Assembly: GCF_041248615.1 (NCBI RefSeq)
Contig: NZ_CP158426.1
Direction: 5' to 3' (one strand)
Source of the DNA: Escherichia coli
GTDB taxonomy: Bacteria; Pseudomonadota; Gammaproteobacteria; Enterobacterales; Enterobacteriaceae
Length of the DNA: 64,000 nt
Shown: positions 3,937 to 19,575 of the stretch, in pieces
How the letters are laid out: each line of letters opens with the position of its first letter
Numbering within the stretch: position 1 is the first letter of the stretch
Made by a program: the position numbers and the translations under genes
Notes under the pieces: model-generated
The model's database searches: none
Told to the model about the DNA's origin: nothing
What the model saw: the letters and a program-made list of their open reading frames with translations, nothing else

Positions 3937-5961
<2,025 letters not shown>

Positions 5962-15155: not shown

Positions 15156-15500
15156 TTATTTGCTATCGCGAATCCCTAAGCGTTGTAATAATCCGATAAT
15201 CCCTTCCCGCAGAAGCAAGGATGTAAACTGTTTTTGTTCAACTGGCGTCATCTCTTTCGCCAGTGTCACCAGCAACACTTCAAGCGGCGCATCACCAGAC
15301 AGGGCAGGCGCTTCTCCCTGACCTTCTGGACGTTCAGCATTGAGAATATATTCACGAACCTGTTCATTGACGTGAACCAGTCGGGCTTTGCCACCCTGGA
15401 CGCCTGGTTTTGGTGACGTTGTCCAGCCTTCCTTGCGTACCCATTTATTAATGGTCTGGCGGCTATAGCCGGTCAGTCTGGCAAGTTCATCTGGCGTCAT
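15156..15500 (-). CDS. yfeC: Putative DNA-binding protein (DUF1323)
   Basis: 114 aa from MTPDELARLTGYSRQTINKWVRKEGW; track start 15515 is an over-extension. Confidence 0.8.
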   Translation of the reverse strand: MTPDELARLTGYSRQTINKWVRKEGWTTSPKPGVQGGKARLVHVNEQVREYILNAERPEGQGEAPALSGDAPLEVLLVTLAKEMTPVEQKQFTSLLLREGIIGLLQRLGIRDSK

Positions 15501-15735
15501 CCTCTCCTTGAACATAACAATTCCCTGAATGTATGTGGGTCTATTAGTCGTTCATTTTATAACACCACTTTACAGGAAACCGTGACATGAATAACTACTG
15601 AATGCGAGCGGTTTTCCAAAATTGGTCATTTGCCTGATTTTTCAGCGATTGAAACTACACGTTGCAATTTGCCGTTGACACATTCGGGCGGAATTCATAT
15701 GATGCCGCCCGTCAACTCGACAAGCTTTACGTGAC

Positions 15736-15811
<76 letters not shown>

Positions 15812-15850
15812 AATTTTGCACCCAGCAAATTTGGTACGTAAACGCATCGT

Positions 15851-15926
<76 letters not shown>

Positions 15927-16133
15927 AATTTCAAACCCTCGCTGTAAAGCGGGGGTTTTTTGTCTCTGCTTTTTGCCGCTTTTGTAATACAGTCTACGTC
16001 CGGGTTAGCGCCGCCTGGTGAAAGCATCATTGGATGAAAAATCGGCAACAGGCTGGCCCCTGTTTGCTTCGCGATGCGAATAAACTTATTATTTGTGTGC
16101 CTGAAAACCCCGATCAGTGAGAGTAGTGTACTC

Positions 16134-18323
16134 ATGTTTGTGGAGCATAACCTGATAAAAAATATCAAGATATTCACACTAGCGTTTACGCTCACCGTGG
16201 TACTTATTCAGCTATCCCGTTTTATTTCGCCACTTGCCATTATCCATTCCAGTTATATCTTTCTGGCGTGGATGCCACTGTGCGTAATGCTGTCAATCTT
16301 GTTTATCTTTGGCTGGCGCGGTGTCGTCCCCGTTTTATGCGGGATGTTTTGCACCAATCTGTGGAACTTTCATCTCTCTTTTTTACAGACTGCGGTCATG
16401 CTCGGCAGCCAGACGTTTGTCGTGTTGTGTGCCTGCGCAATATTACGCTGGCAGCTGGGGACGCGTTGGCGTTATGGATTGACCAGCCGATATGTCTGGC
16501 AACGTCTGTTCTGGCTTGGTTTGGTGACGCCGATCGGCATCAAATGCAGCATGTATCTTGTGGGGAGCTTCTTTGATTTCCCGCTAAAGATATCCACCTT
16601 TTTCGGCGATGCGGATGCCATTTTCACGGTCGTTGATTTGCTAAGCCTTTTCACCGCTGTGCTGATTTACAACATGCTTTTCTACTATCTCACTCGCATG
16701 ATTGTAAGTCCCCACTTTGCGCAGATATTGTGGCGCAGGGATATCGCTCCGTCGTTGGGCAAAGAGAAACGCGCATTTACCTTAAGCTGGCTGGCAGCGT
16801 TAAGCGTGCTGCTACTTCTGCTGTGCACACCGTATGAAAATGACTTTATTGCCGGTTACCTGGTGCCCGTTTTCTTCATTATCTTTACCCTCGGGGTCGG
16901 TAAGCTCCGCTATCCGTTTTTAAATCTCACCTGGGCTGTTTCAACGCTTTGCCTTCTGAATTACAACCAGAACTTTTTGCAAGGGGTGGAAACCGAATAT
17001 TCGCTGGCATTTATTCTCGCGGTGCTGATTTCCTTTAGCGTTTGCCTGCTCTATATGGTGCGCATTTATCATCGCAGTGAATGGCTTAATCGCCGCTGGC
17101 ATTTGCAGGCGCTGACCGATCCGTTAACGCTCCTACCCAACTTTCGTGCGTTAGAACAAGCGCCGGAGCAAGAGGCGGGCAAGAGTTTTTGCTGCCTGCG
17201 CATTGATAATCTTGAGTTTATGAGTCGTCATTACGGCTTAATGATGCGCGTTCACTGTATCCGATCAATTTACCGTACGCTGCTGCCGTTGATGCAGGAA
17301 AATGAAAAGTTGTATCAATTGCCGGGTAGTGAACTGCTGTTAGTGCTGAGTGGGCCGGAAACGGAAGGGCGACTCCAGCATATGGTTAACATCCTGAATA
17401 GTCGGCAAATTCACTGGAACAATACCGGGCTGGATATGGGCTATGGTGCTGCCTGGGGGCGTTTTGATGGAAATCAGGAAACCCTGCAACCCTTGTTGGG
17501 GCAGTTAAGCTGGCTGGCGGAGCAATCCTGCGCACATCACCATGTGCTGGCGCTGGATAGCAGAGAGGAGATGGTTTCCGGGCAGACCACTAAACAGGTG
17601 CTATTGCTGAATACCATTCGCACGGCGTTAGATCAGGGTGATTTGCTGCTCTACGCCCAGCCAATTCGCAACAAAGAGGGTGAAGGTTATGATGAGATCC
17701 TCGCGCGACTGAAATATGACGGTGGCATTATGACCCCGGATAAGTTTCTGCCCCTTATTGCTCAGTTTAACCTTAGCGCGCGTTTTGATTTGCAAGTGCT
17801 GGAATCCCTGTTGAAGTGGCTGGCAACACATCCTTGCGACAAAAAAGGCCCGCGCTTTTCAGTCAATTTAATGCCGCTCACGCTGCTGCAAAAGAATATT
17901 GCCGGGCGGATTATTCGTCTGTTTAAGCGTTATAACATCTCCCCGCAGGCGGTCATTCTTGAGATCACCGAGGAGCAGGCGTTTTCTAACGCAGAAAGCA
18001 GCATGTACAACATCGAGCAACTGCATAAGTTTGGTTTCCGGATTGCGATTGATGACTTTGGCACCGGTTATGCCAACTACGAACGGTTAAAGCGTTTGCA
18101 GGCTGATATCATCAAAATTGATGGCGTCTTTGTGAAAGATATCGTCACGAATACGCTGGATGCGATGATTGTGAGATCAATTACCGATCTGGCGAAAGCG
18201 AAGTCATTGAGTGTGGTCGCGGAGTTTGTCGAGACGCAACAGCAGCAGGCGCTATTGCATAAGCTCGGGGTGCAATATCTGCAAGGGTATTTGATTGGTC
18301 GCCCGCAGCCATTAGCTGATTAA
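16134..18323 (+). CDS. pdeA: c-di-GMP phosphodiesterase PdeA (MASE1 / degenerate GGDEF / EAL)
   Basis: 729 aa from MFVEHNLIKNIKIF; N-terminal multi-TM domain and C-terminal EAL domain; formerly yfeA. Confidence 0.85.
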   Translation: MFVEHNLIKNIKIFTLAFTLTVVLIQLSRFISPLAIIHSSYIFLAWMPLCVMLSILFIFGWRGVVPVLCGMFCTNLWNFHLSFLQTAVMLGSQTFVVLCACAILRWQLGTRWRYGLTSRYVWQRLFWLGLVTPIGIKCSMYLVGSFFDFPLKISTFFGDADAIFTVVDLLSLFTAVLIYNMLFYYLTRMIVSPHFAQILWRRDIAPSLGKEKRAFTLSWLAALSVLLLLLCTPYENDFIAGYLVPVFFIIFTLGVGKLRYPFLNLTWAVSTLCLLNYNQNFLQGVETEYSLAFILAVLISFSVCLLYMVRIYHRSEWLNRRWHLQALTDPLTLLPNFRALEQAPEQEAGKSFCCLRIDNLEFMSRHYGLMMRVHCIRSIYRTLLPLMQENEKLYQLPGSELLLVLSGPETEGRLQHMVNILNSRQIHWNNTGLDMGYGAAWGRFDGNQETLQPLLGQLSWLAEQSCAHHHVLALDSREEMVSGQTTKQVLLLNTIRTALDQGDLLLYAQPIRNKEGEGYDEILARLKYDGGIMTPDKFLPLIAQFNLSARFDLQVLESLLKWLATHPCDKKGPRFSVNLMPLTLLQKNIAGRIIRLFKRYNISPQAVILEITEEQAFSNAESSMYNIEQLHKFGFRIAIDDFGTGYANYERLKRLQADIIKIDGVFVKDIVTNTLDAMIVRSITDLAKAKSLSVVAEFVETQQQQALLHKLGVQYLQGYLIGRPQPLAD

Positions 18324-18331
18324 CAGGCGTA

Positions 18332-18363
18332 AAAAAGCCGGGGAATGATCCCCGGCTTTTTTA
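18332..18363. terminator. Bidirectional terminator between pdeA and nupC
   Basis: aaaaaagccgggg-aatgat-ccccggctttttt. Confidence 0.65.
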
Positions 18364-18372
18364 TGTATGGTC

Positions 18373-19575
18373 TTACAGCACCAGTGCTGCGATTGACGCA
18401 GACAGCACACTCACCAGGGTAGAGCCGTAAACCAGCTTCAGACCGAAGCGAGAAACCACGTTACCTTGCTCTTCATTCAGGCCTTTAACCGCACCGGCGA
18501 TAATCCCGATAGAAGAGAAGTTAGCGAAGGAAACCAGGAACACAGAGATGATGCCTTCAGCACGCGGAGAGAGCGTGGAAGCAATTTTCTGCAGATCCAT
18601 CATCGCAACGAACTCGTTGGAAACCAGTTTGGTCGCCATGATACTGCCCACTTGCAGTGCTTCACTGGAAGGAACACCCATCACCCATGCAATCGGATAG
18701 AAGATGTAGCCCAGGATGCCCTGGAAGGAGATGCTGTAGCCAAACCAGCCAGTCACGGTAGCAAACAGTGCGTTCAGCGCGGCGATCAGGGCGATAAAGC
18801 CGATCAGCATTGCGGCAACGATAATGGCAACTTTGAAACCTGCCAGAATGTATTCACCCAGCATTTCGAAGAAGCTCTGACCTTCGTGTAGGTTGGACAT
18901 CTGAATGTTCTCTTCGCTGGCATCAACACGGTAAGGGTTGATCAGCGACAGCACGATAAAGGTGCTGAACATGTTCAGTACCAGCGCTGCAACGACGTAT
19001 TTCGGTTCCAGCATGGTCATGTATGCACCAACGATGGACATCGACACGGTGGACATCGCCGTTGCTGCCATGGTGTACATACGGTTACGGGAGATTTTGC
19101 CAAGGATATCTTTATAGGCAATAAAGTTTTCAGACTGACCCAGAATCAGGGAGCTGACGGCGTTAAAGGATTCCAGTTTGCCCATGCCGTTGACTTTGGA
19201 GAGCAGGAAACCAATTGCGCGGATAATCACCGGCAACACGCGAATGTGCTGGAGAATACCGATCAGTGCAGAGATAAAGACGATTGGACACAGCACTTTC
19301 AGGAAGAAGAATGCCAGGCCTTGATCATTCATGCTACCAAAGACGAAGTTAGTCCCTTCGTTGGCAAATCCGAGCAGTTTTTCGAACATTTCGGAGAAGC
19401 CTTTCACGAAGCCTAAACCAACGTCGGAGTTCAGGAAGAACCACGCCAGTAACACTTCGATAACAAGCAGTTGAATAACATAACGGATACGAATTTTTTT
19501 GCGGTCGCTGCTTACCAGCAGTGCGAGAATCGCAACAACGGCAAGTGCCAGTACAAAATGAAGGACGCGGTCCAT
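18373..19575 (-). CDS. nupC: Nucleoside:H+ symporter NupC
   Basis: 400 aa from [23 protein letters not shown]-family transporter. Confidence 0.9.

Follow-up and report, generated by a model that had tools for sequence, protein, structure and literature searches.

The uninterrupted pdeA–nupC junction of an Escherichia coli strain carries a predicted shared terminator hairpin that is also an IS186 target

In Escherichia coli K-12 MG1655, the converging genes nupC and pdeA (yfeA) are held apart by a copy of the IS4-family insertion sequence IS186, whereas in the strain analyzed here they are separated by a short spacer. The junction raises the question of which arrangement is the original one, and whether the difference matters beyond marking a strain. 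We addressed this question in a 64,000-nucleotide stretch of E. coli DNA, referred to in its full length as the window, and in the complete genomes of the species.

In the window, pdeA occupies positions 16134..18323 on the + strand (729 aa plus stop) and nupC positions 18373..19575 on the − strand (400 aa plus stop), as assigned from the list of open reading frames (ORFs), the RefSeq annotation of strain Ecol_316 and Pfam. The mechanically called ORFs extend beyond these coding sequences, that of pdeA starting earlier, at 16074, and that of nupC reaching 19614. The stop codons (18321..18323 for pdeA and 18373..18375 for nupC) converge on a spacer at 18324..18372, and the ORF ends at 18323 (+) and 18373 (−) bear out the 49-bp separation given in the original prediction. 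The genome of Ecol_316 (NZ_CP018957.1) is 100% identical to the window over 1049 bp (17824..18872). Its RefSeq annotation lists a pdeA of 2190 nt, a nupC of 1203 nt and a gap that is likewise 49 bp, within the gene order gltX, yfeD, yfeC, two tRNA-Ala, pdeA, nupC, ypeD, mntH, ypeC, yfeO. In Pfam searches, the pdeA product matched MASE1, EAL and, weakly and under the cut-off, GGDEF, and the nupC product matched Nucleos_tra2_N, Gate and Nucleos_tra2_C. Upstream of pdeA, two identical tRNA genes at 15736..15808 and 15851..15923 (+; Rfam tRNA, 63 bits each) were both 100% identical to MG1655 alaX and alaW, the genes for tRNA-Ala(GGC).

When MG1655 IS186C was used as the blastn query, no match was obtained anywhere in the 64-kb window, in agreement with the prediction that no IS186 lies between its pdeA and nupC genes. 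The MG1655 copy is indeed annotated in NC_000913.3 between nupC and pdeA, as 'insertion sequence:IS186C' at 2514273..2515617 with the transposase gene insL3 (b2394); nupC ends at 2514244 and pdeA occupies 2515643..2517832. Inspection of the MG1655 junction thus showed an interrupted spacer and not the 49-bp junction of the window. Alignment of a 10-kb MG1655 stretch with the window gave two blocks, each of 97.8% identity, one ending at 18352 and the other starting at 18341. The two blocks overlap solely at 18341..18352, the segment that was duplicated on insertion and that takes in the loop of the hairpin described below and the inner part of its stem. This 12-base segment, GGGAATGATCCC, is the direct repeat that flanks IS186 in occupied genomes, and it is present as a single copy in the window. 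No IS186 footprint was present in the window, which has neither a repeated GGGAATGATCCC nor leftover bases of the inverted repeat. In MG1655, IS186C is a 1337-bp element with the inverted repeat ATAAGCGCTAACTTAAGGGTTG at its bounds and the 12-bp direct repeat GGGAATTATCCC on both sides; how these 12 bases are shared out between the IS termini and the target duplication is a matter of definition, and the annotation adds four bases per end to give 1345 bp. The MG1655 junction minus IS186C reads AAAAAAACCGGGGAATTATCCCCGGCTTTTTT, which is the window hairpin with two substitutions, one at the stem base and one in the loop.

The hairpin itself, A6-GCCGGGG-AATGAT-CCCCGGC-T6, spans 18331..18362 and consists of perfect 13-bp arms around a 6-nt loop (AAAAAAGCCGGGG AATGAT CCCCGGCTTTTTT). 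It begins 7 nt past the pdeA stop codon and 10 nt past that of nupC. Predicted free energies of the RNA fold were −31.1 (+ strand) and −25.8 kcal/mol (− strand; z = −7.4 and −6.0, respectively), and none of 200 shuffled sequences was equally stable. On either strand the stem is followed on its 3′ side by a U-tract: T6 at 18357..18362 encodes that of the + strand, and A6 at 18331..18336 gives U6 in transcripts of the − strand. A GC-rich stem that lies between A6 and T6 and starts 7–10 nt past the stops of two convergent genes matches the textbook description of a bidirectional intrinsic terminator. The hairpin has this form, and its structure predicts that it terminates transcription of both pdeA and nupC; the folds and the U6 tracts on both strands thus support the "clean bidirectional terminator" of the original prediction as far as structure prediction can. 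A simple consensus terminator scanner reported a partial stem on the − strand only, which is a product of its narrow stem and loop rules and not of the sequence. Two other candidate features in this region were rejected. The Rfam family ar35 matched 18327..18501 (−) with 27.9 bits against a cut-off of 45, which we took as chance, and a promoter-like TTAACA-18-AATGAT in the spacer was dismissed, the total for the region being 2 where 0.9 are expected.

The same structure prediction gave a different result in K-12. There, the 61 nt past each of the two stop codons fold at −10.2 and −8.9 kcal/mol with z of about 0, no better than shuffled sequences. The predicted shared terminator is destroyed in K-12 by IS186C. 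The absence of the element had been described as a strain marker with little functional consequence. The marker stands, and so does the small consequence for the window, where the predicted terminator is intact; the refinement is that the consequence lies in K-12, where the predicted terminator is split. A 2025 RNA-seq survey of K-12 lists insL3-pdeA as overlapping convergent transcripts (PMC12288877). That overlap is consistent with terminator loss in K-12 and is not a test of it. A literature search found no paper that joins IS186 with nupC or yfeA, and a wider one yielded only the RNA-seq list naming insL3-pdeA.

The position of IS186C agrees with the known target preference of the element. 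IS186 targets the motif 5′-GGGG(N6/N7)CCCC-3′ and can insert either way round, the motif being a palindrome; K-12 has only 54 such sites (19 N6 and 35 N7), some of which were struck many times (Lee et al. 2016, PMC5009759). In the window, GGGGAATGATCCCC at 18340..18353, within the hairpin, is an unoccupied match to GGGG(N6)CCCC and the sole GGGG(N6/N7)CCCC site in the 64 kb. Since 0.64 sites are expected by chance in a stretch of this length, one site is close to chance, and the weight of GGGGAATGATCCCC is in its coincidence with a known insertion point and not in its mere presence. All three MG1655 copies of IS186 lie in CGGGG-N6-CCCCG palindromes. IS186A (15387..16731) and IS186B (608007..609351) adjoin the toxin loci hokC/mokC and hokE, and their hairpins have the form GCGGGG-N6-CCCCGC, so that each of the three K-12 copies is located at a gene's 3′ end, in a hairpin-shaped G4-N6-C4 site. 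SaiSree et al. are said to have described a further IS186 hot spot at the lon promoter in 2001.

The state of the junction was then surveyed in 5426 complete E. coli genomes, of which 5424 matched the 1049-bp junction query. In 4460 of the 5424 (82%), which include O157:H7 and O104:H4 as well as isolates of varied host and origin, the junction was uninterrupted and in one place; the contiguous spacer was found at ≥93.5% identity in 4156 genomes. IS186 was present in the K-12 orientation, with the transposase on the nupC strand, in 474 genomes, and in the inverted orientation, with the transposase on the pdeA strand, in 466. Short junction queries of 107 nt, used at a strict E-value that admits true junctions only, gave 475 and 464, respectively. 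About 939 complete genomes (~17%) thus carry IS186 at this junction in one orientation or the other, and about 25 genomes, by difference, have other junction states. The K-12-orientation set consists mostly of laboratory derivatives (MG1655, DH5alpha, BW25113, J53, C600, TG1, XL1-Blue) and also holds some field isolates, while the inverted set, among the matches listed, contains field and clinical isolates throughout, including ETEC H10407. The empty junction is the majority state and most likely the ancestral one, K-12 and the ~17% of complete genomes being derived.

Queries that joined the pdeA flank to an IS186 end matched a median of 1 place per genome and a maximum of 22 or 23 places, with 784 to 825 of the matched places on plasmids. 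The median of 1 implies that at least half of the genomes have no IS186 end apart from the match at the pdeA flank, and at least half of the complete E. coli genomes thus appear to be without any IS186 copy.

The window represents a rare version of the empty junction. Its exact 77-nt allele (18310..18386, the spacer with 14 nt of pdeA and 14 nt of nupC) was found in 45 of 20,395 records, and 76 records were ≥99% identical to the window over the 1049 bp, the human isolate Ecol_316 being the best match. The rarity of the 77-nt allele indicates that the lineage of the window has been little sampled; at this locus the window and K-12 differ by about 2.2%. The G4 and C4 runs were invariant among the five empty alleles that were sampled, and variation was confined to loop position 4, the stem base, one 4-bp deletion in the right arm and one extra A in the A-run.

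To what extent the occupied junctions are independent of each other can be judged from eight occupied genomes that were read at both junctions. Twelve-bp direct repeats of the form GGG-N6-CCC surrounded the 1337-bp element in seven of the eight. Among the occupied genomes the flanks differed by up to 30 substitutions in 1500 nt. Three hairpin alleles were distinguished by the stem base and the loop. The allele with A at the stem base and the loop AATTAT carried IS186 in the K-12 orientation in MG1655 and RM10410 and inverted in 300709 and, by its right-hand repeat only, in EM20-18-50. With G at the stem base and the loop AATGAT, which is the window's allele, IS186 was in the K-12 orientation in PK8568 and SW070917 and inverted in F6326-C1. 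The combination of G at the stem base and AATTAT was represented by the inverted insertion in EcPF7, with none sampled in the K-12 orientation. The eight genomes therefore comprise five combinations of allele and orientation, and both repeat copies had the same loop allele in every one of them but EM20-18-50.

The existence of two orientations requires at least two insertion events. Inversion of the element in situ by recombination between IS copies was considered as a source of the second orientation and rejected. Such recombination turns around the DNA that lies between two copies and does not flip one element against the native sequence on either side, and the sampled genomes have native sequence on both flanks. 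The pattern of alleles is suggestive of at least five insertion events, a count that rests on the eight sampled genomes. The presence of IS186 on three hairpin alleles indicates that the site is a recurrent natural hot spot. The window's hairpin allele, GCCGGGGAATGATCCCCGGC, carries IS186 in both orientations in other genomes, and the window's own allele is thus demonstrably usable as an IS186 target.

Three genomes showed irregular structures at this junction. In EM20-18-50 (NZ_CP063467.1; junctions at ~2790 and ~4137), the repeats are unequal, the one next to pdeA being GGGATCTCTCCC and the one next to nupC GGGAATTATCCC. They differ by three substitutions, all in the 6-nt core, and both outer flanks are native, a configuration that is not explained by simple insertion; it might stem from a sequencing error, from a second event or from gene conversion among IS186 sites. 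In MFDS1019527 (NZ_CP169309.1, 1999..2140), the spacer is 142 bp instead of 49 and contains two diverged hairpin copies with the REP-like sequence GCCTGATGCGCTACGCTTATCAGGCCTAC between them, and the 3′ end of nupC is also different. ST2747 (NZ_CP007394.1, ~4430..4760) has lost nupC through a deletion from the last ~90 nt of pdeA to a point upstream of mntH, which leaves a 2214-nt pdeA with an altered C-terminus.

We conclude, with a probability of roughly 0.93, that the window holds an uninterrupted and probably never-occupied pdeA–nupC junction, in which one hairpin is common to both genes and is also an IS186 target. With its A-run and T-run, the hairpin may stop transcripts arriving from either side, and its G4-N6-C4 core doubles as a consensus target of the IS186 transposase. 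Both in K-12 and, as separate events, in other lineages, the element has entered the loop and inner stem, duplicating GGG-N6-CCC and splitting the predicted terminator. In the window strain, which has no insertion, the locus should act as an ordinary convergent pair with a common terminator.

Three other explanations were weighed against this reading. An ancestor of the window strain might have acquired IS186 once and lost it again through a precise excision, with the single hairpin restored. Such an event would be traceless, leaving the same single copy that we observed, and it would have occurred at a proven hot spot whose very allele is occupied in PK8568, SW070917 and F6326-C1. Even so, precise excision is unparsimonious when 82% of complete genomes, from O157:H7 to O104:H4 and across many hosts and sources, are uninterrupted. 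It also has to contend with the ~2% difference between the window flanks and the occupied K-12-type flanks, with the failure of blastn to find IS186 in the 64-kb window, and with the rarity of excision itself, for which PMC5009759 gives one in 857 IS events in mutation-accumulation lines. We regard this history as highly improbable. That an IS copy was collapsed out during assembly has a next to negligible chance of being correct, even if IS elements are classic points of breakage and collapse in short-read assemblies. The junction is base-for-base the same as in the complete genome Ecol_316 (100% over 1049 bp) and 4460 complete genomes share its contiguous layout, an identity that excludes an assembly artifact for practical purposes, and a collapse would not rebuild a perfect single-copy palindrome.

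A third explanation leaves the empty state unquestioned and concerns the nature of the hairpin, which might be mainly another palindromic element, such as a protein-binding site or a REP-like repeat, whose placement between the two genes is incidental. The spacer of MFDS1019527, with its REP-like sequence between two hairpin copies, speaks for this possibility in that it shows the segment to be duplicable. Against it stand the textbook terminator form just past two converging stops and the Rfam search, in which no family reached the gathering score over the hairpin. The wide distribution of the form A5-RCCGGGG-N6-CCCCGGY-T5 also argues against a specific element. It was found in at least 120 stretches from contigs of unrelated bacteria (Marinobacter, Acinetobacter, Rhizobiales and others), the spread to be expected if this is simply a generic shape of bidirectional terminators, as it appears to be. 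Several copies each were seen in Marinobacter and Acinetobacter genomes. These matches came from a genome_contigs scan for outgroup hairpins with AAAAARCCGGGGNNNNNNCCCCGGYTTTTT, whose free 6-nt loop made the pattern too generic; Escherichia was absent among the 80 loci listed from the at least 120 matches, and the scan carried no outgroup information. We consider it very unlikely that the hairpin is mainly such an element, and a predicted terminator that doubles as an IS186 target is the reading we retain.

The absence of IS186 from the window is an ordinary strain or lineage marker of a kind already known, and nothing in these results challenges current knowledge. What they usefully add is that the uninterrupted hairpin is a consensus and repeatedly used IS186 target. 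Few consensus targets exist for IS186, and one of them has been struck repeatedly in natural populations, an instance of target-driven recurrence. With its three states (empty, orientation A and orientation B), the junction offers a simple marker for typing. K-12 is atypical at this locus, and work on the 3′ ends or the expression of nupC and pdeA in K-12 needs a check before it is transferred to other strains. A more far-reaching idea, which we regard as unlikely, is that insertion at the common nupC–pdeA terminator may be more than neutral and that the natural hot spot is under selection. If this were true, the split terminator would allow nupC or pdeA transcription to continue into the element and the gene opposite, selection acting on nucleoside uptake or c-di-GMP turnover, in addition to target preference, could account for the repeated insertions in two orientations (~17%), and the window would show this switch in its 'off' position.

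Compared with the IS186C site of MG1655, the window has the same chromosomal site to the base, with flanks that are 97.8% identical. It differs in that the element is missing, in having one copy of the 12-base segment that is doubled in K-12, and in its hairpin allele, which has G instead of A at the stem base and the loop AATGAT instead of AATTAT. The bidirectional Rho-independent terminators of convergent E. coli genes are like the window hairpin in their perfect GC-rich stem with A- and T-tracts, in their strong predicted folds on both strands and in their location within 7–10 nt of the stop codons; the window hairpin, known here from predicted folds, differs from them in doubling as a transposase target. 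In relation to published IS186 hot spots, the target in the window is empty and its hot-spot behavior is read from natural isolates rather than from laboratory transposition, whereas GGGGAATGATCCCC is an exact fit to the N6 form of the motif and other genomes are occupied here in both orientations, as the motif predicts.
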